Assembly: GCF_000007225.1 (NCBI RefSeq)
Contig: NC_003364.1
Location: forward strand, 960,001 to 992,000
Reading direction: 5' to 3'
Origin: Pyrobaculum aerophilum str. IM2
GTDB taxonomy: Archaea; Thermoproteota; Thermoprotei; Thermoproteales; Thermoproteaceae
Length of the DNA: 32,000 nucleotides
Both the position numbers and the translations under genes were made by a program. Within the stretch, counting starts at the first letter, position 1. Every line of letters begins with the position of its first letter. The notes beneath the pieces are model-generated. The model did no database searches. It saw only the letters and a program-made list of their open reading frames with translations, and had not been told where the DNA came from. This document shows, in pieces, positions 1,645-19,008 of the stretch.

Positions 1645-1645
1645 T

Positions 1646-2295: not shown

Positions 2296-2324
2296 TTACA
2301 AAGAGAATTAGGCGTTAAAAAATC

Positions 2325-3326: not shown

Positions 3327-3350
3327 AGCGTGTTTATAAGCTTTTCTCAG

Positions 3351-3360
3351 ATATATAAAT
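3351..3360 (-). promoter_or_regulatory. TATA-like box for tfb
   Basis: ATTTATATAT on the minus strand, 25-34 nt upstream of the ATG at 3326. Confidence 0.45.
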
Positions 3361-3393
3361 CTTTCGTTTATTGCTCCAGCGTTGATTAGTAGC

Positions 3394-4353
3394 CTATACT
3401 GATTTTAAAAGCCTTCTAACTTTTGCAAGGGCTCCATATATTTGGGTCAGCCCGTGCGCTCCCCTTAAGATGGCGTAATGCGCCTCCGCTATTATATACG
3501 CGATCTCCGGCTTTACGTACTCCTGGACGTCCAGCCTCAGCATTTCTCTGTGAATCTGTTTAATTATTTCCAGCTCCCCCACGCCGCCGTCTGCCACAAA
3601 GCCGTATATTTGCGTCGCTGCCTTTCCGAAACTGCCCTTCACCGCTTCATATAGTGTCTCCCTCAACAGCCTGGGGCTTACCATTCCCAAAGCCTTTGCC
3701 ACCACCTCCTCAGTGACGGCCTTGCTTACAGTGGCCGCTATTTGTAACGCGTTTATCGCCCTCCTCATATCGCCTTGTGTAAATTCATATATAGCCTCCA
3801 ACGCGTCGTCTGATACCTTCACGCCCTCATTCTCAGCTATATAGCGAAGACGTGCGAACACGGCCTCTTTCGGAAGCGGCGAGAATCTTATCATGACAGT
3901 GCGCGACTGTATAGGCTCAATAATTCCGCTGACGTAATTTGCCAGTAGTATAAATCTTGTGTTTTGTGCGTATATTTCCATTATTCTGCGGAGTGCTTGT
4001 TGTGCGTCTGAGGTCATGTTGTCAGCCTCGTCTAGTATTACTAATTTAAACGGCGCTTTTCCCACCGGCGCCGTCCTCGCGAACTCCTTCACTCTCTCTC
4101 TAATTACGTTTATCCCCCTCTCGTCTGAGGCGTTTAGCTCAAGGGTATTCTCCCGCCAGTACTCCCCGTAGAGCTCCCTCGCCAAAACTAAAGCCATGGT
4201 AGTCTTCCCAGTGCCCGGAGGGCCGTAGAAAAGGAGATGGGGCATATTCCCGGCTTTAACAAACTGCCTAAGCCTAGCCTTAACCTCCTCTAAATCCACC
4301 ACCTCATCAAAAGAACGAGGACGGTATTTCTCAAACCAAAACAACTCGCTCAT
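3394..4353 (-). CDS. rfcS: Replication factor C, small subunit
   Basis: 319 aa. N-terminal RFC box (WFEKYRP), Walker [10 protein letters not shown], Walker [10 protein letters not shown] and QSR (SRC-like) motif. The start overlaps the upstream ORF stop by 4 nt. Confidence 0.95.
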
Positions 4354-4808
4354 ACGTAAAACTCCTCTGCCAGCTCTGTTTTAATATATTGACCGCCTTT
4401 TAATAACACATAGCCGAGCCTATTTAGGACTTGAAGCAATTCGTAGTCGCGCTCACTGAGCTTCTCAGCGTCTTTAACAGACATGGGCAGCTTGTCTAGC
4501 AAATCTCGCGCCGCCTCTTTCAACACTACCAGTTCTTTATTGGCCCCCTCATCGCGAAGTACTAACACTAAGCCCCTTTCCAGTGCCTGTCTAAGCGCTG
4601 GTTTTGACTTCACTTCAGAAAGGGGCATGAACTTCCTCTCGCGTAATATCTCAATAAGCGAAGACTTAGGCGCTTGCCGCGCCTCGGGTTTTCTCTTCTT
4701 TAACTCTCTTAATTCTTCCAAAACAGTATTGAGCAGTATTTCAATTTCGTCAAGCCGCTCTAGGATTTTTTTGGCGTCTTCGCAATCCTCCCTACGCATG
4801 TATTTCAA
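4350..4808 (-). CDS. Hypothetical protein (charged, coiled-coil-like)
   Basis: 152-aa ORF translationally coupled on both sides: it overlaps the GTPase stop and the rfcS start. I recognise no domain. Confidence 0.5.
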
Positions 4809-5961
4809 CTATTTCGTTGTCAGAAAGCACGTAGTCGCGCCCAACGCGCTTAGGGCGATTGGGGAAATCCTCCCGGCGCCAAACCACGGCGTATTTAAAA
4901 GTCTCGGCCAGGGATGAGTGTATCATCGCCGCCACCTCGCCCACTGTAGAGCCGGCCTTCACTACAATGGGCTTTGGCGTGTACGTCTTTGAGTGAATAG
5001 GCTTAGTGAAGACTCTGATTCTCCCAGTGACCTTTAACAAATCCTCTAAAAGCCTCCTCTTGTCAACGCTACACGTTTTTAAGTCGGCGAGGTAATACCT
5101 CACGCCGCTTTTCGATAATAAATCAATAACTGAGTCCGAGGGCTTTAGTAAATCTGTCTTGGAAATCACCGCTATAGTCGGCTTATAGATCCTGTCTAAA
5201 TAAAGAGCTTCTTCAACTTCGTCTAGAGTAACCTCCCCCTCTATGCGCACCACTGCGTGGTATATTCCATATTCGTTTAATATTTTCTTTACATCATTTA
5301 GAGTGCCGCCTATAACCCTCCCCGAACCCATGATTTGTATCCCGCCGAGGCCCCTTCTCTCTATCTTTACATAATTCCGCAATGGGGTTAGGTAAACCCC
5401 CTCGTCCTCAAAAAACTGGAAAATCCTTTCCACAGCCCCGCGGTCTGTATCTGCGCCAATTACTAAAATCACTGCGTCTGCGTTTCTCACCGTCGCCAAA
5501 GCTATGGCGTTTAAATCACTGCTTTGATCAAGGACTAGGCTCGGCGTCTTAACCAGCTGCACGTAAACGCCGTCCTCCACGAACATTGAAGGCACGGGTT
5601 CCACTGTTGAAAAAGGCAAGTCGTCAGGTCTAAGCGTTGTGTTTGATAGACAACACAGCAGAGAGGTCTTGCCGGAGCTTGGAGGGCCCACGACCGCCAC
5701 TTGTATATCCCCCTCTTTAGCCACATAAAGGCGCGATCCGCCACCGCCCCGCAGAGCTCTCTCCTTCTCCCGCCGCTCGTTCAACTCCCTCTTCAGCTCA
5801 GCCATCCTTCTCCTTATATGCTTTATCAACTTCTCAGTCCCCTTATGTTTAGGCACTGTGGATAAAAACTCCTCCATCGCCTTAATCTTCTCCTCAGGCG
5901 TCTTCGCCTCCATCACCTTAAGCCAAGCCGCTTTAGCCTCCGCTGGCAAATTGGCAGGCAC
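4792..5961 (-). CDS. DRG/Obg-class GTP-binding protein with C-terminal TGS domain
   Basis: 389 aa with P-loop GPPSSGKTSLL and a charged helical N-terminus typical of archaeal DRG. The C-terminus is TGS-like (VFTKP...VVKAGSTVGEVAAMIH). GTG start with AGGTG 10-14 nt upstream, 23 nt after the crotonase-family stop. Confidence 0.8.
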   Translation of the reverse strand: MPANLPAEAKAAWLKVMEAKTPEEKIKAMEEFLSTVPKHKGTEKLIKHIRRRMAELKRELNERREKERALRGGGGSRLYVAKEGDIQVAVVGPPSSGKTSLLCCLSNTTLRPDDLPFSTVEPVPSMFVEDGVYVQLVKTPSLVLDQSSDLNAIALATVRNADAVILVIGADTDRGAVERIFQFFEDEGVYLTPLRNYVKIERRGLGGIQIMGSGRVIGGTLNDVKKILNEYGIYHAVVRIEGEVTLDEVEEALYLDRIYKPTIAVISKTDLLKPSDSVIDLLSKSGVRYYLADLKTCSVDKRRLLEDLLKVTGRIRVFTKPIHSKTYTPKPIVVKAGSTVGEVAAMIHSSLAETFKYAVVWRREDFPNRPKRVGRDYVLSDNEIVEIHA

Positions 5962-5983
5962 TTATAACACCACCTGGAAATTT

Positions 5984-6694
5984 TTAGCTTTTACCCCGAT
6001 TTCCAGCAAAGAATTTTTTAATTCTAGACCGAGTCTCCTCGCTTGTCGCCGCCTCGGCCAGTTTATACAAATACGGCACTGCCTCGTCCACTCTCTCCAT
6101 TATCCACCTTTTTGCCTTGACAAACGCGCCAATGTGCTCCGGCGGCGAGAAGAGCCTCTCTGGAGACAGTTGCCCTATTTCGGAAACAATGCCGAATCTA
6201 AACGCCTCACCTGCTGTAAAATCTCTACTTAACATAATTCTAAGATGGCCGTAGGAGAATAAGTATTTTCCAATTGATACCGTGTAGGGAGGGAAGAGGC
6301 CAAAATTAATACCTTGTAAGGAAAATTTCAACGCCTCACTAGCCGCCACTACGTAATCAAAGAAATATAGGAGTTCTACTCCTAATCCATATACATCTCC
6401 CTTTATATAAGCAATTATACGCTTATCACAATCAAGAAATTTTTTAATTAATTTATGAATAGTAAATAAATACTCTAATACTCTCTCCTTACTTTCTAGG
6501 AAAACCGAGAGGTCGAGACCAGCGGAGAAGACGGGGCCTTCGTTTGTCACAATTACTTCTCTTTCACAACCCAGCTTCAGCAAGCTTTCAAGTACATCAC
6601 GCGTAATCGCGTTCCTTTTCTCGCCGGTCAGAACTACTTTGTCGTATTTGCCAAATGGCTCAATTCTTATCACAATTCTGACTAATAAATACAT
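5984..6694 (-). CDS. Enoyl-CoA hydratase/isomerase (crotonase) family protein
   Basis: Crotonase pattern VVLTGEKRNAIT...GPVFSAGLDL...GDVYGLGVEL. I moved the start from the ORF-track 6763 to ATG 6694, because the longer form overlaps icd. GTG 6673 is an alternative start. Confidence 0.7.
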   Translation of the reverse strand: MYLLVRIVIRIEPFGKYDKVVLTGEKRNAITRDVLESLLKLGCEREVIVTNEGPVFSAGLDLSVFLESKERVLEYLFTIHKLIKKFLDCDKRIIAYIKGDVYGLGVELLYFFDYVVAASEALKFSLQGINFGLFPPYTVSIGKYLFSYGHLRIMLSRDFTAGEAFRFGIVSEIGQLSPERLFSPPEHIGAFVKAKRWIMERVDEAVPYLYKLAEAATSEETRSRIKKFFAGNRGKS

Positions 6695-6708
6695 TTTAAT
6701 TATATTTG
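6695..6708. promoter_or_regulatory. Shared AT box between divergent crotonase-family and icd genes
   Basis: TTTTAATTATATTT is the only AT-rich element between the two divergent starts. It sits 12-25 nt from the icd ATG at 6720. Confidence 0.4.
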
Positions 6709-6719
6709 CCGCCTCTGCT

Positions 6720-8039
6720 ATGGCTGTAGATATAGAGAAAATCAAACAGGGAATACCCAACATAGTCCCCTACGCTGGGAAGTATGTAGACCCTCCAGAG
6801 GGGGATTACGTAGAGTACACGGGCCCGGGCCAATTCAAAGTCCCCGATAAGGTCGTTATCGGGTACATAGAGGGAGACGGGATAGGGCCAGAGGTGGCTT
6901 ATGCGGCTATTAGAGTGGCAAACGCCGCAGTTGAAAAGGCATATGGGAAGTCTAGAAAAGTAATCTGGTATGAGGTAGTGGTCGGCGAAAAGGCCGAAAA
7001 AATCTTCGGCAACAGACTGCCTGACCAGAGCATTAACGTCTTGAAGAAAATACGGGTGTTTCTTAAAGCCCCGCTTGAGACTCCAGTGGGAGGAGGGTTT
7101 AGAAGTATAAACGTGACGTTGCGCCAGCTCTTTGATCTCTACGCCAATATTAGACCTGTGAAGTACTTCCCGGGCCTCCCCTCGCCTCTGAAAAGGCCAG
7201 AGGTTGTCGATTTAGTAATTTTTAGAGAAAACACAGAGGACGTCTATGCTGGCATTGAGTGGCCTTACAACAGCCCTGAGGCGTCTAAAATCCGGGATTT
7301 CCTGCGTAGGGAGTTCGGAATTAATATAAGAGACGACGCCGGCATTGGCATAAAGCCCATTAGCAAATTCGGCACGCAGAGAATTGCAAGGCTGGCCTTG
7401 AAATTTGCAATTGAAAACAAGAGGCGTGTGGTAACAGTTATGCATAAGGGAAATATCCAGAAATACACCGAAGGCGCATTTAAAGATTGGGCGTTTGAAG
7501 TGGCTAGGAATGAGTTTAGGGAACACGTGGTGTTTGAAGACGAGCTGGCCCAGTACGGCGGCCAGGTGCCCCCGGGCAAAGTCCTTGTTAACGACAGAAT
7601 TGCCGACAATATGTTACAACAGCTACTCACGAGAACGGGGGAATACGACGTAATTCTAGCCCCCAACTTAAATGGGGATTACGTCTCTGACGAGGCCGCT
7701 GGCCTAGTCGGAGGCCTCGGCGTCGCCCCCGGCATTGACGTGGGAGACTGGGGAATGATGGCGGAGCCGGTCCACGGCACAGCGCCTAAATATAGAGGTA
7801 AAAATTACGTAAACCCCACTGCCACAATACTAGCCCTTGAACTACTCTTCCGATTCTTGGGGTGGAGAGAAGCCGCGAATTATATTATCAAAGGAGTTGA
7901 GACTGCATATAGGGAGGGCTATTTCACCGGAGATCTGGCAAGGCAAATGGACGAGGAGGAGAGGAAACATCGGGTTAAGGAGGTGCTTGGGACGCAGGAA
8001 TTTGCCGATAAAGTAGTAGAGATAATAAAAAGATTGTAA
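6720..8039 (+). CDS. icd: Isocitrate dehydrogenase (NADP-type)
   Basis: Motifs IEGDGIGPEV, NLNGDYVSDEAAGLVGGLG and HGTAPKY, with about 440 aa from ATG 6720. The ORF-track start at 6639 adds a hydrophobic extension that overlaps the divergent gene, so I did not use it. Confidence 0.9.
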   Translation: MAVDIEKIKQGIPNIVPYAGKYVDPPEGDYVEYTGPGQFKVPDKVVIGYIEGDGIGPEVAYAAIRVANAAVEKAYGKSRKVIWYEVVVGEKAEKIFGNRLPDQSINVLKKIRVFLKAPLETPVGGGFRSINVTLRQLFDLYANIRPVKYFPGLPSPLKRPEVVDLVIFRENTEDVYAGIEWPYNSPEASKIRDFLRREFGINIRDDAGIGIKPISKFGTQRIARLALKFAIENKRRVVTVMHKGNIQKYTEGAFKDWAFEVARNEFREHVVFEDELAQYGGQVPPGKVLVNDRIADNMLQQLLTRTGEYDVILAPNLNGDYVSDEAAGLVGGLGVAPGIDVGDWGMMAEPVHGTAPKYRGKNYVNPTATILALELLFRFLGWREAANYIIKGVETAYREGYFTGDLARQMDEEERKHRVKEVLGTQEFADKVVEIIKRL

Positions 8040-8041
8040 AA

Positions 8042-8515
8042 TTAGACCTCTTTTGCAAATAAGTACTCTATTGGTCTAAATCCCATTTTTTTGTAAAAGT
8101 TAATAGCTATCTCATTAAGCGCGGGGAAAGATGCCATAATTATCTCTGCGCCTTTCTTCCTTAACTGTTCGACGCCCTCCATCATAAGCCTTTTGCCAAT
8201 GCCCTTCCTCCTGTACTCCGGCAGTATGTAGAACTCTTTTATAACCCCGGCATATCTCGGCTTGTAGAAAATCCTGTCCTCCACGTCGCCCTTCAGCAAC
8301 CCCACTACTTTACTTCCCTCTGCCGCGACTAAAAGCACTGAGGACGGGCTATTTAAGGCGTTTTCGAGATATTTTCTAACGGCTTGTTCTATGTCTGGGA
8401 CTACTTCTAACATGGGGTCAAACTCTGCATTGAGCCGTTTTAACCTAACTACTAGCTGGACGGCAGAGTCAAGGTCTTCTTTTGTGGCGAGTCTAATCAC
8501 TACTGTTGGATACAT
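8042..8515 (-). CDS. GNAT-family N-acetyltransferase
   Basis: 157 aa with the acetyl-CoA binding motif RRKGIGKRLM and a GNAT-type beta-alpha layout. Confidence 0.8.
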   Translation of the reverse strand: MYPTVVIRLATKEDLDSAVQLVVRLKRLNAEFDPMLEVVPDIEQAVRKYLENALNSPSSVLLVAAEGSKVVGLLKGDVEDRIFYKPRYAGVIKEFYILPEYRRKGIGKRLMMEGVEQLRKKGAEIIMASFPALNEIAINFYKKMGFRPIEYLFAKEV

Positions 8516-8658
8516 AAATAGGGTATATTTTCATGTTTTTAAATATTTAATAACAGCATATACTTCTTTTATTTATTAGTATTTACATAAAAATTTTATA
8601 ATTTAAAAATAGTGAATATAGTAAAATTCTCTAGCTATGAATAGTTAATGAAATATAA

Positions 8659-9543
8659 TTAATGTTGTCCTATAAACGTCACTTCGCTTCTTAACAGTTC
8701 AGAAATAGACAACTGCTCATATCTCCCCCTTTCTGACAAGTGTAAAACCACGTACTTGTTATTAATACTAGTTACCGCCATTTTTTCGCCCTTTAAGACT
8801 ATAACATCGCCAGGTTTGTAAGTCGCGATTCTCACAGAATACGTCATATGGTATATCTTCCTGCCGTCTTTTACGCCAACAACCTTAGCCGTCTCTGTTA
8901 CGACGCTAGGGAATTGTCTGTGTATGACGTAAGCCAAATGTCTTGCGAGATTTGCATTTGTTGTATATATATCTATTCCATTTTTCAAATCTTTTATATC
9001 ACTTATAAAACCTATTTTTTTATCTTTAAGTTTATAAAGTTCTTGTTCTATTATGAAAATAATTTTCTTTTTAACGTCATTCTCTATACCTCTAGGATAC
9101 CCTCTAATTTGTAACACAGCGACTTCCCTTCTGCTTAACATCTCTCTACACGAGTTACAAATATCGTAGACGTACTCAAACGTTAAGACGTAAGTAAACA
9201 ATCTCGGCTCAATAGAGGGGTGGGGAGAGCCTTTGACCACTACTCTAGCCGTAAGGCCATCATAACTCTGAGACGCCTCTATTCTCTCTATCGCCCCGCT
9301 AACTGACGCCTTGTCTGACAAGACCTTTGCCGCCAACTCCTCCACGCCTCCCCTCCCCTCTCTAATCCACCTCCCTCTTATAAATAAAGCGCCGCAGTAC
9401 CTACACCTCAAGACTCTGGTTTCCTTTACCTTTACCAGTGGGTGTCTCTCAACGTAACAATCTTCGCACATGCCCTCAATTAGCCTATCAACTAGGCGTC
9501 CGCAAAACGGGCAAGGAATTTTAGCCACGTCTCTACCGGCCAC
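8659..9543 (-). CDS. NMD3-family protein (ribosome-associated, archaeal homologue)
   Basis: 294 aa with an N-terminal cluster of CxxC pairs (CPFCG, CEDC, CRYCG, CNSC), as in the NMD3 N-domain. GTG start. Confidence 0.75.
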   Translation of the reverse strand: MAGRDVAKIPCPFCGRLVDRLIEGMCEDCYVERHPLVKVKETRVLRCRYCGALFIRGRWIREGRGGVEELAAKVLSDKASVSGAIERIEASQSYDGLTARVVVKGSPHPSIEPRLFTYVLTFEYVYDICNSCREMLSRREVAVLQIRGYPRGIENDVKKKIIFIIEQELYKLKDKKIGFISDIKDLKNGIDIYTTNANLARHLAYVIHRQFPSVVTETAKVVGVKDGRKIYHMTYSVRIATYKPGDVIVLKGEKMAVTSINNKYVVLHLSERGRYEQLSISELLRSEVTFIGQH

Positions 9544-9591
9544 CCTCTAAATATTTTTTTACTTCTAAAGCTATGGCGTATGATAGCGGCG
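9542..9591. repeat. Direct repeat A: relic copy of the last 17 codons of the C5-MTase gene
   Basis: 46/50 identical to 14307-14356. Read on the minus strand it encodes PLSYAIALEVKKYLEG, the same as the MTase C-terminus. Confidence 0.85.
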
Positions 9592-9596
9592 TCCTC

Positions 9597-12524
9597 TTAA
9601 TTACTATTGTCAGCGCCAGCGCCTTGTTTATCACTATCAAGTTTTCCTCTGCGCCACTGGTCTACGGCGTCTTTAAGCGCCTTAAAGCGGCACAGGGCGT
9701 CTAGCTGGTCCGCGAGGAGGAACACTCTGCCCCTCTTAGCCTTTCCGGTCAGCGCCTTTAACACGGCGGCTTCCACATCGTCTTTGACCGTGAGTGTTGC
9801 CATTTCAAAGTAATACGTGGTCGTTGTATTGCCTTTTTTCTTTTGTTGCTTTTTCCAGTACCACTCTATTTTGAACTGTTTCCTCTCTCCCCCAACCTCG
9901 TACTCCGCGATAATGCGCAGGCGGCAGTCCCTTCCAGCGCAGTGGCTCACCGGCTGGCCGTTTTCCACAAATTCATACCGCAGATCTACAACGCGGGCAA
10001 TTAAGTTGCCCCCCTCGTCGTATACCGCCAGCGGAAGCTCCGCCGCTCCCTCCTCCCTCGCCGGAGTCAGAACCTCAATTAGCTTTTTCGCTGCGTCATC
10101 GCCGTGTCTGCGCTTCAAAACGTCCTCCAACTCCCTGATGAACCGCTCCGCCTCCACGTTGCCGCCCAGCGCCATACGCTGAATTTCGCGGAGGCCGTCG
10201 TAAGTGATGTAGATTATGTACTGTCCGCTCCACTTCACCGCGAAGTGCTTTCCCTCCGCCAGCCCCGCCGCCTTCAAGGCGTTTACGATGGCGTCTTTGT
10301 GGTCTTTTTTAACGCGGATTTCGCGCCTTTTATCGTAAACAGCGTAGTGCTCGCCTTTCTTCAGCCCGCTCTGCGCCAAAGTCTCAACGGCCTTGGCGTA
10401 TGCTTCTTTTGTAACGCGGATTTCGTAACCGCCATGCTCTTTCACCGTGAAGTGTATGCCCTCCTTCAGACCCCTCGCCTTTAATGCGTTTAAGGCGGCG
10501 TTTTTAGATGCCTCGCTAGTCGGAGTATATCTCACTTGTATTATATCGCTATACTTGTCTCTCGTCTTGTAATTAACCGAGAACTCCACGTCGGCGAATT
10601 TAACGGTGTTGGGCCCAGTCTCAATCTCTTTCACCACCTGTTTATACCTATTCTCGCTGATCAGCCCCTTGTCTTTAAGCTCGTCCACAAAGCTCCTCAC
10701 CGCGTTCAGCCAGCCGTTGTGGCGGATTGACGCAATGCCGTCGGTGTAGAGCTTGACTTTCCATACCTTACTTACGCGCTTAACCTCTGCCTCGCCGCCG
10801 AGGGCCCTAATGATAGAGGCCAGCCGTTCGGCGTTTTCGCGGGAGCCGCCGAATTTGGCATAAAGCTCAGTGCCGGTCCAGTATACTGTTATGTGCGCCA
10901 CTTCCTCACCGTTCAACTTGAAGCGAATTATGGCCTTTGGCCACTGCCCGCTTGTGTCCAAAGGTCCTTTCTCCACGGCGATGTTTTTGTAGACGTAGTC
11001 CTCTGCCATTGTAACAACTTCCTCTAGCTTTTTGAAAAACATTTCGTTTCTCACGTCGTAACCCCAGTCAATGCCGAATTTCCTTTTAACCGCCTCGCGG
11101 GTAACGACTTTAAACGCGTCGGCGAATTCTGTCAGGGCATCCCTAAGCTCGTGCAACGCGGGTAGCGCCGGCGTTACAGCCTCCAGTAAGCCGTTCAGCT
11201 CGGCGCCTTTGAAGGCAATATGGTGCGCGCCTCTGCCCCTATACACTGAGCTTGGCTTAAGGCCAAGCTCCTTCAGAGCCCACAGCCAGAAAGCGGTGAA
11301 GTGGTCGCGGGTCATAATCGGACTTTCCACGTGTTCAGGGCCGCCGATGAAAAGCAGAATTTCGTCTCTAAACACAGTCCCATCGTACAACACAGCGAAA
11401 ATCACCGCAAGGGCCGCCTCCTCTCTAGACAGTTCACCCATCTTGCGCGCCTCTACGGCATATGCCAGCGGGAGGAGGACGCGGAGGTATTTGCCCAGCT
11501 TGTCTACCTCCATTACCACCTTTTTCCTCTCTTCGTCCTTTTTCTCCTTTGCCTCCTCTTCTAGCTGTTTCCACAGTGCTAACAGCTCATTAACGCGCTC
11601 CCAGAACTCGCCGGCCGCCGTCTCCAAGGCCTTCTTTAATTCATCATTCATTTTAACATCAGTTAGAGCCACCTTCAGATCAACGCCGCCTTCCGACTGT
11701 TTGTTAGGTGTCAATAGATTTTCAAACACGGCGCGGCTTACACTCAGCACCTCGCGCACCGCCTCAGTGTACTTGCCCTCAACGCGCCACATCGGCTTTA
11801 GCCCCTCCTCGGAGGGGTATACTCTTACGAGCCCAATTCCGCCCCCAGCGTCGAGCTTAATTTCGCGCTCAGCCAGCGCCCAGTAGGTAAATGTCTGCGA
11901 GAGGTAAGAGGAGTCGCCGAGGACGTACTCACGTCCGGGGTATAGGACGGCGTCTGTGGGCAGTGCGCCGATTGTAATGGCCCTAGCCGTTTTCTTCACT
12001 ATTTTTCTCGTCTTTTTCACCGCTTTTACTGCCCTCTCCCACTCCCCTCCGCCAAGCCCCTCCAGTAGTTTAGAGCCGGAGGAGGCGGCCGCCGCCAAAT
12101 TAGCAACTTCTTTAAACAGCTCTACCACCTCTCCCTCCGCCGAAAGCGGTATTAGCCACTTGCCAGCCTCCCATGGGACTTTGAGGAGCTCGTGGCCGTT
12201 TTCTACAAATGTGGCGTATACGCGCCTTTTGCCGTTTTCTGTCTTCTCCTCTATGCGTACTTCCACGCCCTGTCTGCCGGCCAGTATTTCTCTCATTGCG
12301 GGTTCTATCAGTAGAGTGGCAATGCGGAAGGCCAGTTTTCTGGTCTCTGACAGCTTCTCATCACCGCTGGCTGATCTAAACACCTTGTAGAAGACGAAGG
12401 GTGTATTCCTAACAGCTGACGCAATGCTGAGAGTGCCGGCTATCTGCTCACCTTTCCCCGCCAACGCCCTCTCCATGGAGACGCCGAATAGGCCGCCAGT
12501 TACAAGCGATAGCAAAGCGGTCAC
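9597..12524 (-). CDS. paREP2b-like large repeat-family protein (probably the downstream part of a frameshift-split gene)
   Basis: 975-aa ORF, paralogous to 19203-21128 over its C-terminal two thirds. The GTG start has no promoter, and the frame stays open 186 nt upstream. The family name is from my memory of the P. aerophilum annotation. Confidence 0.7.
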   Translation of the reverse strand: MTALLSLVTGGLFGVSMERALAGKGEQIAGTLSIASAVRNTPFVFYKVFRSASGDEKLSETRKLAFRIATLLIEPAMREILAGRQGVEVRIEEKTENGKRRVYATFVENGHELLKVPWEAGKWLIPLSAEGEVVELFKEVANLAAAASSGSKLLEGLGGGEWERAVKAVKKTRKIVKKTARAITIGALPTDAVLYPGREYVLGDSSYLSQTFTYWALAEREIKLDAGGGIGLVRVYPSEEGLKPMWRVEGKYTEAVREVLSVSRAVFENLLTPNKQSEGGVDLKVALTDVKMNDELKKALETAAGEFWERVNELLALWKQLEEEAKEKKDEERKKVVMEVDKLGKYLRVLLPLAYAVEARKMGELSREEAALAVIFAVLYDGTVFRDEILLFIGGPEHVESPIMTRDHFTAFWLWALKELGLKPSSVYRGRGAHHIAFKGAELNGLLEAVTPALPALHELRDALTEFADAFKVVTREAVKRKFGIDWGYDVRNEMFFKKLEEVVTMAEDYVYKNIAVEKGPLDTSGQWPKAIIRFKLNGEEVAHITVYWTGTELYAKFGGSRENAERLASIIRALGGEAEVKRVSKVWKVKLYTDGIASIRHNGWLNAVRSFVDELKDKGLISENRYKQVVKEIETGPNTVKFADVEFSVNYKTRDKYSDIIQVRYTPTSEASKNAALNALKARGLKEGIHFTVKEHGGYEIRVTKEAYAKAVETLAQSGLKKGEHYAVYDKRREIRVKKDHKDAIVNALKAAGLAEGKHFAVKWSGQYIIYITYDGLREIQRMALGGNVEAERFIRELEDVLKRRHGDDAAKKLIEVLTPAREEGAAELPLAVYDEGGNLIARVVDLRYEFVENGQPVSHCAGRDCRLRIIAEYEVGGERKQFKIEWYWKKQQKKKGNTTTTYYFEMATLTVKDDVEAAVLKALTGKAKRGRVFLLADQLDALCRFKALKDAVDQWRRGKLDSDKQGAGADNSN
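10988..11432. repeat. 445-bp tract identical to 20609-21053
   Basis: Base-by-base comparison at an offset of 9621 found no mismatch. The flanks drop to roughly 70-75% identity by hand alignment. Confidence 0.9.
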
Positions 12525-12651
12525 TGTCCTCTCTCCTCTAGTGGCGTCTATCTTGGGAAGATCGTCTGCGGCGGCCTCCGCAAGCCTTATTACGTTCTCC
12601 GTAGCCGCTTTCAGCCTTTCGGCAATTCCGCTGTAACCAGCTCCCTCCAGC

Positions 12652-13680
12652 CTATATGCAATTCTGTCCAGCTCGTTGGTAACCTCCCTTCGCCCTTTCC
12701 GCGGCTTCTACTAACACGTTGAGGTCACCCCATACGTCGCTAAGGGCAAATCTGCCGCTTTTCACAGCTCCTTCCAGCCTTTCAAGCGCCTTGTAGGACT
12801 TGTTCTTCAGCTCTACAAACTCCCTCAAGTGGTTTAATAGCGTGAAGGAGGCTATTAGATATGCTATTCTGTCATCGTCATCTTCAAAGACCTTTACGCT
12901 CTTGCCGGTCTCCCTAGCGCCAAGTACTGCCAGAGCCCAAAGCGCCGCGGGATCTCTTTGCTCATACCACGCCTTAGAGGCCTCCTCAAGGGCCTTTTTG
13001 TAGTTGGCGGCTTTCATCGCCTGCACGTAACTCGTCAAGCGCCTTAACTCTAACACTGCATTTTCTATTTGCTTCTCATCCATCGCGTGTCTCAGCGTTG
13101 AGAAGGCGCTTACCGCCTTCTCCACAACGCCTTTGTCAAGGCCTAGCTGGGCGGCGCGCTCTACAATCTCTTTCTCGCTTGCTGTTTTTGTCAATACCGC
13201 ATTCCCTACTTCCTTCCACTTATCGCCAACGCCAGCCGCCTTTGCCAGTCCCGCTATCGCCCCGGCGTTAAGCGCTATGTGGTTCTGCCAAAGCGTGTAG
13301 TCCAGTTGTTGCGCCACTACCCACGCCATCAGCCCGGCCGCCGCGGCGGCCATTATGAACCAATGCGCTCTTACGTAGTCAAGGACTCTCGCCACCGCCT
13401 CTACAAACAGCTCGTAAAGCCTCTGCAACGTTATTCTCGCCTTTTCGAATACCTCCCTCGCGGCTTCATACGCCGCCTCGGCGGCCCTTCTTACGTACTC
13501 CACTGCCCTCTCAAAGGCCCCCTCCCTCGCCAGTACTACCGCCGCGGCCGTCGCTGACACAACAGCCGTTGAGTACAGCCCGTCGTGTAGCGCCGCGTAT
13601 CCGGCCAGGCCGGCGGCGGCTACAACTGCCGGCTTGACTGCCTCCTCTACCGCCGCGATGCATCCCGGCGCCTCTTCCAC
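12652..13680 (-). CDS. Ala-rich protein with hydrophobic segments; probable upstream part of the split paREP2b-like gene
   Basis: 342-aa ORF with a GTG start, 14-23 nt from the AT box TTTTTAAAAA (13694-13703). Its last 57 nt overlap the open upstream extension of the 975-aa frame. Confidence 0.5.
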   Translation of the reverse strand: MEEAPGCIAAVEEAVKPAVVAAAGLAGYAALHDGLYSTAVVSATAAAVVLAREGAFERAVEYVRRAAEAAYEAAREVFEKARITLQRLYELFVEAVARVLDYVRAHWFIMAAAAAGLMAWVVAQQLDYTLWQNHIALNAGAIAGLAKAAGVGDKWKEVGNAVLTKTASEKEIVERAAQLGLDKGVVEKAVSAFSTLRHAMDEKQIENAVLELRRLTSYVQAMKAANYKKALEEASKAWYEQRDPAALWALAVLGARETGKSVKVFEDDDDRIAYLIASFTLLNHLREFVELKNKSYKALERLEGAVKSGRFALSDVWGDLNVLVEAAERAKGGYQRAGQNCI

Positions 13681-13780
13681 GTATTTCCGCGCCTTTTTAA
13701 AAACAACTTAAGCGAGATTTAAGGCAATATTTTAACGCATACGCGCCATAGATTACATAAAGAACGAGGAGCCCCGCGTA

Positions 13781-14215
13781 TTGGAGTGGAGGAAGAGGGA
13801 GGAGGAGCAGAGGAGGCTTGAGCTTAAGAGTCAGGTAATGGCGGCGTTAAAGGACTGGTATCGCAGATGTTTTAAGTGGCCCATCATGCCGGGGGAGGAG
13901 GGCAAGGTAGTGAGAAGGCTAGAGCTTTACTACGGAATGTGCGAAATGGCTAAGGCCGTAATCGCCGAATACGGCGAAAAATACGCCGAGCCTCTAATCA
14001 GCGAGTATGCCCTTAGGCGCGCATTTTGGTGGGAAGGGGAATGGAGGGGGAAGCCCATGTCGTGTTTCGTGACGGAAAAGAAGGCCGTTTGCAAGGTGGG
14101 CGACAAGATGGCCACATTTTACGTATTTGACACGCCCCACGGCGTGTACCTAAGGCCAGAAATCAAGCTTGTAGACGACTGGATTAAAGTGGCGTATAGG
14201 GGCGATGACAGTTAA
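13781..14215 (+). CDS. paREP2a-like small repeat-family protein (short form)
   Basis: 144 aa. ...EYALRRAFWWEGEWRGKPMSCFVTEKKAVCKVG...GVYLRPEIKLVDDWIKVAYRGDDS recurs at 21128-21384, 21371-22204 and, degraded, at 16594-17012. The start is uncertain: TTG 13781 or ATG 13838. Confidence 0.6.
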   Translation: MEWRKREEEQRRLELKSQVMAALKDWYRRCFKWPIMPGEEGKVVRRLELYYGMCEMAKAVIAEYGEKYAEPLISEYALRRAFWWEGEWRGKPMSCFVTEKKAVCKVGDKMATFYVFDTPHGVYLRPEIKLVDDWIKVAYRGDDS

Positions 14216-14306
14216 GGCGACGTGCGTAAAAGTCCTCCTCCCAGAGGTTTTTGAACTGCCGCGGAGGTTTGGAGTGTCATGGGACTGTTTAACGCTACCT
14301 TCAACG
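14205..14306 (+). pseudogene. Truncated start of a second paREP2a-like unit (N-domain fragment)
   Basis: MTVKATCVKVLLPEVFELPRRFGVSWDCLT matches the N-terminus of the 277-aa ORF at 21371 (MEAVSVKECIRVKLPEAFELPRRFGVSWGCLT). It is cut off at the repeat B boundary. Confidence 0.55.
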
Positions 14307-15245
14307 ACCCTCTAAATATTTTTTAACCTCTAGGGCTATGGCGTATGATAGCGGCGGCGGGACGCTCTCGCCAACCTGGTTATACTGAGACTCCTTTGAG
14401 CCGAGGAATATATATCCGTCGGGATAGCCCATTAGCCTGGCCTGCTCCCGCACTGTTAATACCCTGTGCTCCTCGGGGTGTATAAACCGCCTAGAGCCCA
14501 TTACCGTGGGCGCTATGTCGTCCCACATGAGGCGTATATAATTTTCATAAAAGCCGCCTGCCCCTCTATATCTCATTAAGGCCTCGCCGGGCTTCAGCTT
14601 GGAAATTCTTTCTTGTTTCTTCGGGCTTAAAGTCGTAGTCTCGTGGTTGGGAACTATGCCGCTGTCAGGAGGAGGTAAGTCGCGCAACGCCTCTCTTACT
14701 GTAACCCGCCTAGACTTAACAGGTCTAATTTCTATATTTGATACAAATACCCTCCTTCTTCTACTAGGCACTCCGTAGTCCTCGGCGTGTAGTATATTAA
14801 AATAAACCTCGTATCCAACTCTCTTAAACTCCCTTTTAATGTAAGTCCTGAGAGGCTCTTCGGCGAGGGCGGCCACGTTCTCCATTACAAAGACCTTGGG
14901 CCCTATTTCGCCCACTAGCCTTATGAACTCTAAAGTTAATTGGCCCGCGGGGTCTGTGTAAAGCCTATCTGCCGGGTCCTCCATTCTATTGGGATTTGCC
15001 GCGGTGAACGGCTCGCAGGGCGGGCTACCGATAATTACATCGACATCACCCGCATATTTTAACAAATCCCCATAGTCTATATATCTGATGTCTTCTTGTA
15101 TAATGATTGTGTATCTGTGATTGGCGCTGTAAGTCCTCACGGCATCTCTGTCAATATCTACAGCAACAGCAATTTTAAACCCCGCCATTCTAAAGCCCAG
15201 CCCAAACCCGCCCCCGCCTGCGAATAAATCCACTGCGCTGTACAC
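14301..15245 (-). CDS. DNA (cytosine-5)-methyltransferase
   Basis: 314 aa with C5-MTase motifs in canonical order: I DLFAGGGGFGLGF, IV GSPPCEPFT (catalytic Cys), VI VFVMENV, VIII PSRRRRVFV and X GESVPPPL. GTG start with ATTATAAAC about 25 nt upstream. Confidence 0.9.
   Translation of the reverse strand: MYSAVDLFAGGGGFGLGFRMAGFKIAVAVDIDRDAVRTYSANHRYTIIIQEDIRYIDYGDLLKYAGDVDVIIGSPPCEPFTAANPNRMEDPADRLYTDPAGQLTLEFIRLVGEIGPKVFVMENVAALAEEPLRTYIKREFKRVGYEVYFNILHAEDYGVPSRRRRVFVSNIEIRPVKSRRVTVREALRDLPPPDSGIVPNHETTTLSPKKQERISKLKPGEALMRYRGAGGFYENYIRLMWDDIAPTVMGSRRFIHPEEHRVLTVREQARLMGYPDGYIFLGSKESQYNQVGESVPPPLSYAIALEVKKYLEGR
14307..14356. repeat. Direct repeat B (functional 3' end of the C5-MTase gene)
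   Basis: 46/50 identical to 9542-9591. Confidence 0.85.
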
Positions 15246-15462
15246 CTTTTACAAAAACTACGCAGTTTATAATGTCACCTCCCAATTACAGCCTTCCGGC
15301 GCAACGCCCAGCCGCCCTGCCGTGTAGAGAGCTGGTTGATGCTCTCTAAAAACCAAGTGGCGTTGTCCCCAACCAGCCTCTCCCAAGATCGCCGTAAGAG
15401 CATAAAATTGTAGATAGTGGGGACGGGGCATGTTCCACATTATATATTCCCTAGTAGTGAGT

Positions 15463-15479
15463 AAATTTTATAAATATAT
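15463..15479 (+). promoter_or_regulatory. TATA-like box for the PD-(D/E)XK gene
   Basis: AAATTTTATAAATATAT, 15-31 nt upstream of the ATG at 15494. Confidence 0.45.
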
Positions 15480-15493
15480 GACCAGCCCCGTTC

Positions 15494-16084
15494 ATGGGCT
15501 TTGCCAAGAGGCTGAAGTATCGCCTTAGTGATTTAATAAAACTAGAGAAGCCAGACGCCTTGAGCTCCCGCTATGGAAAGGCCTTTGAAAAGGCAGTGCT
15601 GGCGCTGATAAAGGCCAAGGACTCTGTAGCCGCTTTACGTACTTTTATTGAAAACTACGGCGAGCCGCACACCGGCGCCTTTAGTAAACTAATAAAACTA
15701 ATGCCCTGGGCGAAAAGAGTCGTAGAAATAGAGCCCGCGCCTCCCGTGTTTTTCCAACTAGACGGCGTCACTATAACAGCTCAAGCCGATTTCATTGTGA
15801 AATATTCAGATGGGAAGAATGAGCTAGTTGAGCTAAAGTCTCATATTCTGAAGAGGGGTGAGTGGAAAATAAAAGCTGAGTGGTCGCTCGCCACTAAAAT
15901 AATGCGCATGCTCTATAGAAAAGCGGGTTATGACTACCCGCTACGCCTAATTTATTTTGTGGAACGGGAAGACGGCGTCGTCACAGAAGAGGAGGTGTTT
16001 ATATACCCCAAAGACGAGAAAGACGACGAAACTCTCCTCAACGTCCTCCGCGAGAGGCTTAAAAAGGCTATTACAGGCAGGTAA
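15494..16084 (+). CDS. PD-(D/E)XK-type nuclease (candidate restriction endonuclease partner of the MTase)
   Basis: 196 aa. GKAFEKAV (helix with Glu), then ...TAQADFIV... and ...NELVELKSH... give D-x(n)-E-x-K spacing. It lacks the Cys cluster of Cas4. Divergent from the MTase across a 248-bp spacer. Confidence 0.55.
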   Translation: MGFAKRLKYRLSDLIKLEKPDALSSRYGKAFEKAVLALIKAKDSVAALRTFIENYGEPHTGAFSKLIKLMPWAKRVVEIEPAPPVFFQLDGVTITAQADFIVKYSDGKNELVELKSHILKRGEWKIKAEWSLATKIMRMLYRKAGYDYPLRLIYFVEREDGVVTEEEVFIYPKDEKDDETLLNVLRERLKKAITGR

Positions 16085-16364
16085 ACCTCTCTTTAGCTAA
16101 TGCGAATGCTTGCTTTATAATCGACGTTGCGACGTCTAGTTTATCTAAGTGGCGTGGTTGAATAACTGCGTTTTCATCGCCAAGCATAAACTCTATACTA
16201 CACTCTTCATCTGACCAGGAAAAGACTATGAAAACAAAGAAATCCTCACGGAGCTGGATCTGTCCAAGCGCCTCATACTGTCTCCACTCCACTGTGAAGG
16301 CCTCTATCTCCTTGTCTATCCTCTCCTCAAGCTCTCTAAAAAATTGTTCCACTCTCTGGCGCAT
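16071..16364 (-). CDS. Hypothetical acidic protein
   Basis: 97-aa ORF with an AT box (TTTAAATTTATTTA) about 25 nt upstream. Convergent with the nuclease gene, overlapping it by 14 nt. Confidence 0.4.
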   Translation of the reverse strand: MRQRVEQFFRELEERIDKEIEAFTVEWRQYEALGQIQLREDFFVFIVFSWSDEECSIEFMLGDENAVIQPRHLDKLDVATSIIKQAFALAKERFTCL

Positions 16365-16407
16365 GTATCTGGCTTGATCTCTCTTTAAATTTATTTATCG
16401 TTTATAC

Positions 16408-16560
16408 CAGCGGGTTTCACCCCCTCCACTTGTCTATGGCGTCTTTCAGCGCCTTAAACCTGCGCAGGGCGTTCAGCTCGTCGGCTAAGAGATCCACTTG
16501 GACCTCTTCGCCTTCACCGTCAGCGCTTTCAACACGGTTGCCTCCACCCCGTCTTTGGCC
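16408..16560 (-). pseudogene. paREP2b-like C-terminal fragment
   Basis: The minus strand reads ...ATVLKALTVKAKRSKWISLADELNALRRFKALKDAIDKWRG*. This matches the C-termini of both large genes (e.g. AAVLKALTGKAKRGRVFLLADQLDALCRFKALKDAVDQWRRG in the 975-aa ORF). Confidence 0.65.
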
Positions 16561-16593
16561 TTTGAAGAGATCGCCTACAGAGGCCATTAAGAG

Positions 16594-17012
16594 CGAGAGG
16601 GAGTGGCGCGAGCTGAGGGATCAAGTATACCGCGCCGTGGCGGAGTGGCATAGGCAGTGTCTCGGATACTAACCGTGGTCTGAGGTGGAGGTTGTGAATC
16701 GGCATGAGGAGTACGCGGCGATGTGCCAGCTGTACCGCCTTGTCAAGGAGGAGCTGGGGGATAAGGCGTCGCTGTACGCCTCTGACTTCTCCCTCAGGTG
16801 CGTTTTTTAGTGGGAGGGGGGAGTGGCTGGGGCGTCCGCGTCGTGTCTCATAGCGGCATATAACGCCTTATGCCGCGTGGGGAGCGCCAAAATGGAATTT
16901 CGCGCTTATTATGTGAAAAACGGCGTATATCTAGAGCCGAAAATACTCCTGTACAGAGACAGAGTAAAGCGGCGCATAGGGGAGGTGGGGGCAGTTTGGA
17001 GGCAAGAAGCCG
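16594..17012 (+). pseudogene. paREP2a-like remnant with in-frame stops and frameshift
   Basis: EREWRELRDQVYRAVAEWHRQC..*..EEYAAMCQLY...SLRCVF*WEGG, then in another frame ...SCLIAAYNALCRVGSAKMEFRAYYVKNGVYLEPKILLY. It is collinear with the 13781-14215 protein. Confidence 0.65.
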
Positions 17013-17063
17013 CCGCTACAACTCACGAACTTGATTTTTTAAAGTTTTAATTCCTAACCTCAA

Positions 17064-18611
17064 GTGCCTGTGATAGACGTCGCAAAAAGCGACTTGGAGA
17101 GACTCACAGGATTAAAATACGAGGAAATCGCTAAGCTCTTTGAGTATATCAAAGGGGAAATAGAGAGCGACTCAGGCGAGAGGCTTAGAATTGAGGTGAC
17201 CCACGACAGGCCAGATCATTTCTCGGCGGAGGGACTGGCCAAGACCCTCAAGGGAATTGCCGAAATAGAGGTGGGCCTCCCCCGGATTTCGCTGGGGCGC
17301 TCTTCAATAAGGCTAGTGGCGGAGAGCATTACTGAAAGGCCTTATATTGCCATGGCCGTTGTAAGAAATGTTAGGCTCGACGAGGAGGCAATTAAGCAAA
17401 TGATACAGCTACAGGAAAAGCTACACGAGACTTATGGGAGGGGGAGGCGGAAAATAGCCATTGGCTTTTACGACGTTTCAAAAATAAAGCCTCCCATATA
17501 CTACCGGAGGATTTCCCAAGAGGATGAGTACATACCGCTGGGATTTCAGAAGCCCGTCAAAGTCAGGGAGATGTACGAGCTCACAGAACAGGGGAGGAGG
17601 TACAGCGGCCTAATTAATAGGGAAAATCCGCCTGCCCTAGTGGACGCCTCGGGGCAAATAATGGTCGTGATCCCAGTCTTAGGCTCTGAGTGTTGTAAAA
17701 TCACCGAGGCCACTAGAGACGTCTTAATTGACGTCACTGGGACAGATCACCGCGCGGTGGCCAACGCGCTCTCAATTCTCATATATTCCCTTCTAGAGCG
17801 CAGCGGCTCAAAGGAGGTGGAAATTGTAGAGGGGGGGACGGGCTACTCCCACGAATACGTGAAAATTTACGTCGACGAGAGAGCAGTCAGCGAGTTTTTA
17901 GGCGTTAAAATAGCCCACGAGGATTTTATTAAATACATCAAAAAGGCGCGTTTTGACTACCAGGAGGGAGCTGTTATTATTCCGCCTTACAGGATTAACG
18001 TCTTGTCGTGGGTAGATGTGGCTGAAGACGTCGCTATTGTGATGGGATATAACCAAATGCCTAGAGAGGTGCCGGAAATCCCGTCAGCTGGAAGACGGCA
18101 TAGAACAGAGGTAATTACTCTGGAGGTGCGCAAGTCTATGCTGTCCATGGGCTTTACCGAGTTGAATAACTACGTGCTTACAGACGAGGCTGTGGCCGAG
18201 GTGTGTAGCCCCGCCCGCGTCGCCAACCCCATCTCTGAGTTGTATACAACAATTAGATGTTCTATAATCACGCAATTAATCTCGGCGGCTTCGGCGCTGA
18301 AGAGGAGGGAGACGAAAATATTTGAAGTTGGAGAGGTAGTAAGGGAGGGGAGAACCGTTAGGGCGCTGGCGTTTCTCATCAGTCGAGACGGCGCCACGCT
18401 TACAGACGGGCTCTCTGTCGTGAAGAGCCTATGTAAACGCTTAGGATTAAAGTGTGAATTCTTCCCAGCGGAAGCCAAGTGGGCCCTTCCGAATAGAATG
18501 GCTGAAGTGAGAGGCGAGATAACAGGCTATATTGCCGAAGTTAACCCCGACGTGTTAACAGCCCTAAAACACGCGGTGCCCACCGTCGTCGCCGAACTGT
18601 ACATAGGCTAA
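17064..18611 (+). CDS. pheT: Phenylalanine--tRNA ligase, beta subunit (archaeal type)
   Basis: 515 aa. The start MPVIDVAKSDLERLTG is typical of archaeal PheT (B3_4/B5 layout). GTG start, AT box at 17036-17053. Confidence 0.9.
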   Translation: MPVIDVAKSDLERLTGLKYEEIAKLFEYIKGEIESDSGERLRIEVTHDRPDHFSAEGLAKTLKGIAEIEVGLPRISLGRSSIRLVAESITERPYIAMAVVRNVRLDEEAIKQMIQLQEKLHETYGRGRRKIAIGFYDVSKIKPPIYYRRISQEDEYIPLGFQKPVKVREMYELTEQGRRYSGLINRENPPALVDASGQIMVVIPVLGSECCKITEATRDVLIDVTGTDHRAVANALSILIYSLLERSGSKEVEIVEGGTGYSHEYVKIYVDERAVSEFLGVKIAHEDFIKYIKKARFDYQEGAVIIPPYRINVLSWVDVAEDVAIVMGYNQMPREVPEIPSAGRRHRTEVITLEVRKSMLSMGFTELNNYVLTDEAVAEVCSPARVANPISELYTTIRCSIITQLISAASALKRRETKIFEVGEVVREGRTVRALAFLISRDGATLTDGLSVVKSLCKRLGLKCEFFPAEAKWALPNRMAEVRGEITGYIAEVNPDVLTALKHAVPTVVAELYIG

Positions 18612-18638
18612 ATCTTAAATAGGACTAATACACTACAC

Positions 18639-19001
18639 TTGATGACAGACGAAATAGACTCCCTTCTCAGGAAAAAGGCATTGGAGCTCGCCAAGATGAG
18701 AATCCAAGAGAGCGGGCCAAAGCAAAAGGCCTTATCCGGTGATGAGGCGATCCAAATTGTTAGAAAAATTGTAAAGGGGGAAAGGGCCAGTGAAATAATT
18801 GACAACGCCCTATCACTGTATAGTCAACAGGCGATTGCCTTGTTCAAGAAGCTAGCCGAGCTCCACCTCCAAGGCGTAATTAAAGAGCTCGCAGATTATG
18901 AACTTTACCAGATGTTATTAAGACTCGGCATGAGAGTGCCCGTGAAGACTGAAATAAAAATTGTGAGACACGGCAGGGAGTACAAACTGGGAGAGTCCTA
19001 G
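18639..19001 (+). CDS. PDCD5/TFAR19-like dsDNA-binding protein
   Basis: 120 aa. SLLRKKALELAKMR... and ...LAELHLQGVIKE.LADYELYQMLLRLG...EIKIVR follow the COG2118 pattern as I remember it. Confidence 0.5.
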   Translation: MMTDEIDSLLRKKALELAKMRIQESGPKQKALSGDEAIQIVRKIVKGERASEIIDNALSLYSQQAIALFKKLAELHLQGVIKELADYELYQMLLRLGMRVPVKTEIKIVRHGREYKLGES

Positions 19002-19008
19002 CTCAGAT
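18989..19008. repeat. 20-bp direct repeat, left copy (3' end of the PDCD5-like gene)
   Basis: GGGAGAGTCCTAGCTCAGAT versus GGGAGAGTCTTAACTCAGAT at 22321-22340, 18/20 identical. Confidence 0.75.

Follow-up and report, generated by a model that had tools for sequence, protein, structure and literature searches.

Recent ectopic gene conversion with a third paralogue as the probable origin of a 445-bp tract of identity between two PaRep2b genes of Pyrobaculum aerophilum

The 32,000-nt stretch of the Pyrobaculum aerophilum str. IM2 genome analyzed here (the window) contains two diverged PaRep2b genes that share a 445-bp tract of complete identity. Gene A is the long form (975 residues, 9597-12524, minus strand) and gene B is the short form (641 residues, 19203-21128, minus strand); both encode members of Pfam family PF07775, with E values of 6e-278 (over residues 447-961 of A) and 2e-270, respectively. 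A third paralogue, C, is encoded outside the window in the same genome. We consider it probable (roughly 85%) from the sequence comparisons that the tract arose by recent ectopic gene conversion among PaREP2b members, and that it represents the overlap of two larger blocks, one of 852 bp in A and one of 465 bp in B, each shared with C, rather than a private exchange between A and B. The same comparisons establish that transfer among the paralogues of one genome is recurrent and patchy, and they indicate that it is probably non-reciprocal.

The tract occupies positions 10988 to 11432 in gene A (codons 365-512) and 20609 to 21053 in gene B (codons 26-173), on the minus strand at both loci and in frame. 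At the offset of 9621 all 445 of 445 positions are identical and the exact match extends no further on either side, in agreement with a preliminary description of the window that was made from the DNA alone; its assignment of the tract to residues 365-512 of the 975-residue protein and its distance of 60 bp from the tract to the short-form junction were also correct. When identity was plotted along the gapped A/B alignment in 60-nt windows, a sharp-edged block was obtained rather than uniformly high identity, with values of 0.65-0.85 on the 3' side (10581-10987), 1.00 in the tract, and 0.88, 0.77, 0.58, and 0.38 on the 5' side. Identity in the flanks was 74.5% over 1,370 nt (3' side) and 71.7% over 60 nt (5' side). 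The latter segment (11433-11492, minus strand, 72% identical) is the final portion of A/B homology before the junction of the long and short forms, the BLAST homology ending at 11492/21113, which is 60 bp past the tract and 15 bp inside the B start codon (21128). The second-longest identical run between the two genes was 22 nt, and in 2,000 shuffles of the alignment columns the longest run had a mean of 29 and a maximum of 72. The chance of a 445-bp run is 0.74^445, or about 1e-58, and a chance origin of the tract is excluded.

The tract is also exactly present in paralogue C (P0069, AAL63966.1, 991 residues). In protein searches the 148 tract residues of C were 100% identical, and other parts of the protein were 68-77% identical. 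The DNA of C was read from a proxy, an Illumina metagenome contig of 5.3 kb in ENA (L006) whose product matches IM2 C over all 991 residues. String matching to this contig revealed an 852-bp block common to A and C (10988-11839, minus strand; L006 1137-1988) and a 465-bp block common to B and C (20589-21053, minus strand; L006 1544-2008), and the A/B tract is their exact intersection. At the 3' edge of the tract A ceases to match C and B continues to match it for 20 bp further, and at the 5' edge B ceases to match C and A continues for a further 407 bp. The deposited IM2 protein C, which is independent of L006, equals A over residues 230-512 and is diverged on both sides. We therefore infer the 852-bp and 465-bp blocks of IM2 at the DNA level by way of L006, and they are directly evident at the protein level. 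A second block shared by A and C, of at least 386 bp (12611-12996, minus strand), reaches the end of the L006 contig and includes the 3' part of a 342-residue open reading frame (ORF) and the spacer upstream of gene A. Between the two blocks lies a 5' segment of gene A (11840-12610, minus strand) that is not C-like: identity is about 80% with C as well as with the A orthologue, and the nearest sequences are the family proteins P0003, P0011, and P0012 (about 90% amino acid identity).

Comparison with syntenic loci in other assemblies, as the preliminary description had proposed, revealed a conflict between the phylogenies of the tract and its flanks. The loci fetched were L001 for A (orthologue at 496-3426), L002, L003, L004, L005, and L008 for B, and L007 for C; L008 was the sole contig found by scanning metagenome contigs with a degenerate 46-mer from the tract. 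Over the 3' 1.4 kb of the genes, orthologues are 98.6-99.8% (B), 96.2% (A), and approximately 100% (C) identical, compared with about 74% for paralogues. The tract shows the opposite relationship: A, B, and C of IM2 are 100% identical there, whereas B of IM2 is only 92-93% identical to its orthologues in L002 and L003 and 71% identical to those in L004 and L005, and A of IM2 is 91.2% identical to its orthologue in L001. The C orthologues (IM2 type and L007) differ only at gene positions 1139-1355, and at all three loci alike the mismatches per 100 nt between orthologues are concentrated at gene positions 1100-1599. The variable sites, when tabulated, form a mosaic: short runs of states link each sequence now to one partner and now to another. 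In addition, A of L001 equals B of L003 over 398 bp (gene positions 1069-1466), in a block whose sequence and ends are unlike those of the IM2 block. The presence of this separate A/B block together with the mosaics indicates that conversion in this segment has been recurrent and independent in different lineages. Both flanks of B are found on one syntenic contig (L003) with a 100% match to IM2; for A, the NMD3 (3') side is syntenic in L001 and L008, and the methylase/PaRep2a (far 5') side is syntenic in L002 and L003. Because flanking synteny is kept at both A and B, the exchanges are patches and not crossovers or rearrangements.

The direction of transfer can be assigned for the 3' part of the tract. 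The C genes of L006 and L007 are identical from gene position 1356, across the tract edge, to the gene end, so that the 3' part of the tract is contiguous with the own sequence of C and the donor appears unchanged there, as read from the proxy contig. At gene positions 1433-1524, the state common to A, B, and C of IM2 is the C type found in L007; the B genes of L008, L002, and L003 carry a distinct B type, and A of L001 has further A-specific states at 1468-1524. Both A and B of IM2 were thus overwritten in this interval with C-type sequence, and C is the likely donor for this 3' stretch (gene positions ~1433-1537), with A and B as the recipients. The immediate template for B could have been either C or an already-converted A, these two being indistinguishable because A and C are identical wherever B was changed.

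The closest relative among the loci, L008 (99.6-99.8% identical over 11.8 kb), allows the last event in B to be placed in time. Over 6.5 kb, 17 of the 28 mismatches between L008 and IM2 fall within 20636-20713 and the other 11 elsewhere. In that interval L008 has the B-type states also seen in L002, and IM2 has the C-type states also seen in L007. From this cluster of mismatches we conclude that the last replacement in B post-dates the split from the L008-like strain; the minimal extent of this most recent replacement is 20636-20713 (minus strand, 17 differing sites), and its length could have been no more than 80-190 bp.

The preliminary description had attributed the tract to recent non-reciprocal recombination between A and B, which we read as a single direct conversion of about 445 bp, from A to B or from B to A, with no other partner. 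A recent and non-reciprocal character is well supported by the sharp edges, by the retention at each locus of its own synteny, by orthologues that match the flanks (96-100%) but not the tract, and by the recency of the last replacement in B. The direct exchange in one event fares less well. It is true that A and B are identical over exactly this span and that A and C are equivalent as templates for B; however, it is C that defines where the tract stops on either side, such that A must have exchanged with C, and transfer from B to A is excluded at gene positions 1433-1510, where the common states belong to the C type, L008, L002, and L003 having kept the B type. Furthermore, mosaics were seen in this region in all strains examined, a second strain has a 398-bp A/B block of its own, and the transfers were recurrent and involved several partners. 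A single A-B conversion is accordingly an unlikely account of the tract.

An error in the IM2 assembly, in the form of a collapsed or chimeric repeat, was also considered. The blocks (445-852 bp) have about the length of a Sanger read, and an exact-protein look-up places A and B on one contig only, that of the IM2 genome. Against such an error, the tract keeps the reading frame without a seam at two loci whose flanks are unique, the tract and its C-specific flanks are reproduced in the independent Illumina contig L006, the block is visible in the deposited IM2 protein C, and five further independent assemblies contain blocks and mosaics of the same kind. We judge the likelihood of an assembly artefact to be very slight.

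Even less credence is due to a sequence constraint, by which a DNA- or RNA-level element or an overlapping antisense gene would keep every base identical. Plus-strand ORFs at 11071-11886 (271 residues) and 20692-21135 (147 residues) do start at the same ATG inside the tract. The orthologues, however, differ by 7-8% in the tract (about 30% for L004 and L005), more than they do in the flanks, which is the opposite of what constraint would produce; two further IM2 paralogues (P0084 and P0088) are only about 77% identical in this segment, and no Rfam family was matched in the window. None of the 148 tract codons has a synonymous or non-synonymous difference between A and B, and the 448 flank codons contain 102 synonymous and 138 non-synonymous differences. 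Substitutions in the flanks are distributed 98/70/174 over the three codon positions of the minus-strand frame, and this third-position bias identifies the minus-strand frame as the selected coding frame and means that selection cannot explain the identity of the tract. The antisense ORFs are probably spurious, as the substitution bias supports the minus-strand frame only.

Gene conversion involving A, B, and C could proceed by RadA-type strand invasion seeded on pre-existing islands of identity that earlier conversions had left behind, for example at gene positions 1055-1168 and 1485-1557; these segments, which lie beside the changed region of B, are already identical between the B and C orthologues. 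Strand invasion would be followed by short-patch processing of the heteroduplex, as described for hyperthermophilic crenarchaea. In Sulfolobus acidocaldarius, short intervals of moderately diverged DNA give rise to diverse mosaic recombinants, with mismatch resolution that is short-patch and uncoordinated (PMC3367456). The islands would serve as homology anchors, such that the same segment is struck repeatedly and becomes a self-reinforcing hot spot, and in the short-form genes the 5' limit would be set by the end of homology 60 bp upstream of the tract. The event that gave the tract probably belongs to a continuing process: the 5' half of PaREP2b genes is overwritten again and again in short patches that partly overlap and come from different paralogues, and the 3' half remains locus-specific. 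The bias toward the 5' side could result from positive feedback by earlier conversions or from an initiation site near the 5' end.

Several points weigh against this reconstruction. The DNA of C comes from the proxy contig L006 and not from IM2's own copy. L006 spans the 852-bp repeat, which is unusual for a de Bruijn assembly if an identical copy is present, and the organism from which it derives may lack the A copy that IM2 has; none of this touches what the IM2 proteins themselves show. Most of the comparison loci are short-read contigs from metagenomes or metagenome-assembled genomes (MAGs), in which repeat chimeras or bubble collapse could create or blur patches; the 398-bp A/B block is an example of a patch that assembly chimeras could produce, and the assignment of L001 and L003 to one genome (a MAG) is presumed from their adjacent accession series. 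The direction of transfer applies to the 3' part of the tract only and not to the 5' part (686-1432). Finally, the recombination machinery and the seeding on identity islands are inferences, and no lesion or initiation site was identified.

The confinement of the blocks to one half of the gene extends to the family as a whole. Among 94 family proteins, paralogous pairs were defined as those with at most 85% identity in the C-terminal core and exact blocks of at least 60 residues were collected. The 83 identical blocks found between paralogous proteins lie nearly all in residues 1-512 of A, with few in residues 513-975. Given this clustering, the 5' half of the gene is a shuffling zone and the 3' half, which encodes most of the Pfam domain, is locus-specific. 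Within IM2 the blocks form a chain at the protein level: C and a fourth paralogue D (P0084) share about 283 N-terminal residues, in a run mapped to residues ~1-262, A and C share residues 230-512, B and C share 363-519, and A and B share 363-512. The value of about 77% identity for P0084 and P0088 in the tract indicates that homogenization is partial. The N-terminal 230 residues of IM2 A (11840-12610) are about 90% identical to the other-locus paralogues P0003, P0011, and P0012 and 73% identical to the positional orthologue, and the N-terminal 283 residues of IM2 C are the same as in P0084 and almost the same as in the A orthologue of L001; as judged from such sequence relationships, 5' modules are swapped between loci. 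These findings are direct evidence that the PaREP2b family of Pyrobaculum evolves by gene conversion that is frequent and patchy, draws on several partners, and is restricted to the 5' half of the gene. A possible role of the tract as a hyper-conserved segment of the family was rejected, its protein identity across the family being 60-93%, like that of the rest of the protein.

Both the family and its short form have features of their own. A profile of residues 6-270 retrieved 35 cluster representatives (E≤1e-3) among 1.84 billion proteins, so PaRep2b is a very narrow family, and only 4 of these 35 representatives match the first (tract) unit. The start of the short form, MLF(L/S)PKYFHV (window 21113-21162), is common to at least seven PaRep2b proteins from several loci and strains, including P0025, P0026, P0029, P0030, P0031, and P0068. 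Its occurrence at several loci indicates that the short form is a propagated variant of the element and is not private to gene B.

Cassette-type antigenic or phase variation by gene conversion is known from the Neisseria pilE/pilS and Borrelia vlsE systems. PaREP2b resembles these in its many partial copies and segmental mosaic transfers, and differs from them in that there is no evidence of an expression site, one-way flow, or a surface protein, and in that homogenization is included among the outcomes. A corresponding program in Pyrobaculum, in which truncated or silent PaREP2b copies act as donors for expressed copies, would fit the many truncated members, the mosaic and patchy 5' half, and the several donors per recipient. 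Set against it are the facts that A, B, and C are all intact ORFs, that the transfers homogenize as much as they diversify, and that there is no known expression locus, cis-acting initiator, or surface location; moreover, nothing here separates programmed variation from passive ectopic conversion. Programmed diversification seems highly improbable.

The preliminary description had called the tract a LAGLIDADG-like module, a label for which we find weak grounds in a resemblance of predicted folds (Foldseek E ~1e-3, template modeling (TM) score ~0.2) and no support in any sequence-level test. AlphaFold2 models were obtained for B (predicted local distance difference test score, pLDDT, 86.5) and for residues 1-270 (pLDDT 86.6, predicted TM score 0.80). 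The tract is predicted to form an alpha-beta-beta-alpha-beta-beta-alpha unit plus a long helix, with a second such unit after it. With either the whole protein or residues 1-270 as the query, the top Foldseek matches in the PDB were almost all LAGLIDADG proteins (I-OnuI, I-Tsp061I, mMsoI, and WhiA), and a few similarly weak LAGLIDADG matches appeared in the viral library. The scores for these matches were marginal (E 8e-4 to 1e-2, TM 0.1-0.25, root-mean-square deviation 16-18 Å). Helix 28-42 has at its C-terminal end a nearly invariant LYDG sequence (B residues 40-43), and no comparable motif was evident at the end of helix 156-175 in the second unit. A Pfam search of PaRep2b at E≤10 returned only PF07775 and no LAGLIDADG family, a profile search of PDB sequences returned nothing relevant to LAGLIDADG, and hhalign against I-CreI and I-DmoI gave probabilities below 1%. 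Ten remote relatives scanned against Pfam matched PF07775 or nothing, with two sub-threshold matches in one of them and no LAGLIDADG family.

These structural predictions raise the question of homing-like conversion, in which PaRep2b, as a LAGLIDADG-type endonuclease, would cleave its sister copies close to the 5' region and repair from a paralogue would copy the nuclease module. The predicted topology of the unit, the near-invariance of LYDG where the first helix ends, the preponderance of LAGLIDADG enzymes among the top PDB matches together with some in the viral library, and the crowding of identity blocks into the 5' half, which a polarity gradient from a 5' break would produce, are all compatible with this scheme, and the conversion appears to be non-reciprocal, as it is in LAGLIDADG homing. 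In contrast to homing systems, PaREP2b has no sequence-level membership in the LAGLIDADG group by Pfam, PDB profile search, hhalign, or remote homologues, no empty and occupied sites, and variable block ends. The fold matches are weak by their E values (1e-3 to 1e-2), TM scores, and deviations, the second unit is without a comparable motif, and the module was not found to be present in some copies and missing from others at a fixed target site: all paralogues that span the region contain it, and the block ends vary by pair (gene positions 686, 1069, and 1093 at one side; 1466, 1537, and 1557 at the other). Homing by such a nuclease is, in our estimation, distinctly improbable. A further candidate, in which the tract would be a mobile insert (an intein, for instance, or a homing-endonuclease cassette), was rejected on the basis that there is no length polymorphism at its ends and that block ends vary between pairs.

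Ectopic gene conversion and concerted evolution are familiar in prokaryotic multigene families, for example in duplicated tuf genes, rRNA operons, and insertion sequence copies. The PaREP2b case has in common with them a sharp-edged block in diverged paralogues, untouched flanks and synteny, conflicting tract and flank phylogenies, and repeated hits on the same segment. It departs from them in having at least three to four partners in one genome with overlapping blocks, in affecting the 5' half only, and in its location within insertion-type elements. The process is therefore a known one, and what is described here is a new, well-documented instance of it in an uncharacterized archaeal repeat family. 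A second parallel is provided by marker conversion in S. acidocaldarius (Mao & Grogan 2012, PMC3367456), likewise a hyperthermophilic crenarchaeon, in which donor and recipient markers form discontinuous mosaics over a few hundred bp; those experiments used laboratory transformation with short exogenous DNAs, whereas the PaREP2b templates are chromosomal paralogues and the evidence is comparative. The PaREP2b genes accordingly offer a natural record of homologous recombination on 70-80% identical sequences in a hyperthermophilic crenarchaeon, with mosaics that resemble those of the Sulfolobus experiments. Literature searches found no genetic data for this crenarchaeon and nothing on gene conversion in the PaREP2b family; where PaREP2b is mentioned, it figures solely as a "putative transposon" that poses difficulties for assembly (PMC3558965). 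Identical blocks of 400-850 bp explain the breaks of short-read assemblies at PaREP2 loci. As a practical consequence of the shuffling, PaREP2b-based trees, orthology calls, and strain typing will mislead.

The genes are parts of larger PaREP2 units, each of which pairs a PaRep2b gene with a divergently oriented PaRep2a gene (PF07903). The PaRep2a gene of element A lies at 13781-14215 (plus strand, E 6e-65) and that of element B at 21371-22204 (plus strand, E 9e-58; repeat families D3, D6, and D9). The long form has an additional 344-residue N-terminal extension and, between the PaRep2b and PaRep2a genes, the 342-residue ORF (12652-13680, minus strand), which has homologues upstream of the PaRep2b gene in L001 and L006 and no above-threshold match in Pfam, PHROGs, or NCBIfam. 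The ORF product is alanine-rich with hydrophobic stretches, and elements A and C encode the same 114 residues at its C-terminal end (100% identity).

Element A as a whole (PaRep2b A, the 342-residue ORF, and PaRep2a; 9592-14306, 4,715 bp) is present in IM2 and absent from L008, which is colinear with window positions 4267-9591 and 14307-20868 with nothing between them. The element is bounded by 50-bp direct repeats, the left at 9542-9591 and the right at 14307-14356, that are identical at 46 of 50 positions; the right copy is the 3' end of a C5 DNA methylase gene (14301-15245, minus strand). The repeat occurs once in L008 (5276-5325), where it is identical to the right, methylase-side copy. 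The precise absence of the element in L008 and its bounding repeats mark it as a discrete insertion/excision unit with att-like ends. In its 50-bp duplication of the methylase 3' end and in its precise empty site, the 4,715-bp element is like an att-bounded integrative element; it is unlike one in having no integrase or transposase recognizable above threshold in Pfam, PHROGs, or NCBIfam (only PaRep2b, PaRep2a, and the 342-residue ORF were found), and the empty site could just as well have arisen by a deletion, through recombination of one repeat with the other. No direct repeat longer than 12 bp flanks element B. We have entertained the more speculative idea, which we hold to be improbable, that PaREP2 is an undescribed archaeal mobile element with an att-like duplication of about 50 bp, that PaRep2b contains a highly diverged LAGLIDADG-derived nuclease module, and that conversion of the 5' half is promoted by the element itself, through breaks near the 5' region, and is not passive. 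The presence/absence polymorphism of the whole element with its 50-bp repeat and the weak LAGLIDADG-like fold predicted for the converted module provide handles on the PaREP2 family.

A different internal deletion is seen at the A locus of two other P. aerophilum assemblies (L004 13807-14397 and L005 16857-18187), where PaRep2a (window position 13969) is joined to PaRep2b (window position 11191) at a junction that falls inside the tract. No convincing microhomology was found at this junction or at the junction of the long and short forms. What follows the A locus in L004 is nitrate-reductase-beta-like genes and not NMD3, a difference suggestive of rearrangement at this copy of PaREP2.

The whole window contained no tRNA gene and no Rfam family at the gathering threshold, and a scan for bacterial-type promoters and terminators, a model unsuited to archaea, gave results near background. 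Megablast of positions 9000-22500 against a collection of Escherichia coli genomes returned no match, and in a collection of genome contigs that seemingly does not include the source species a protein-pattern scan found no relative and a DNA-pattern scan found no match.

Partial copies and repeats of the PaREP2 genes were noted at other positions. Upstream of gene B, a PaRep2a 3'-end fragment (21162-21388) precedes the complete PaRep2a ORF, and element B thereby has two tandem PaRep2a C-terminal segments (21162-21388 and 21984-22211) that are 70-83% identical to that of element A (13995-14222). A PaRep2b 3'-end fragment of about 160 bp (16405-16564), 65-78% identical to A and B, lies between a 196-residue ORF and the PheRS beta gene and occupies the same place in L002-L005 and L008. 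Within the PaRep2b genes themselves, internal repeats are spaced by approximately 207-213 bp (10237-10298 and 10444-10505 in A; 19870-19931 and 20083-20144 in B), and they correspond to repeated helix-strand-strand units in the predicted C-terminal half, with the motif ...NALKA.GL.EG.HFTV....

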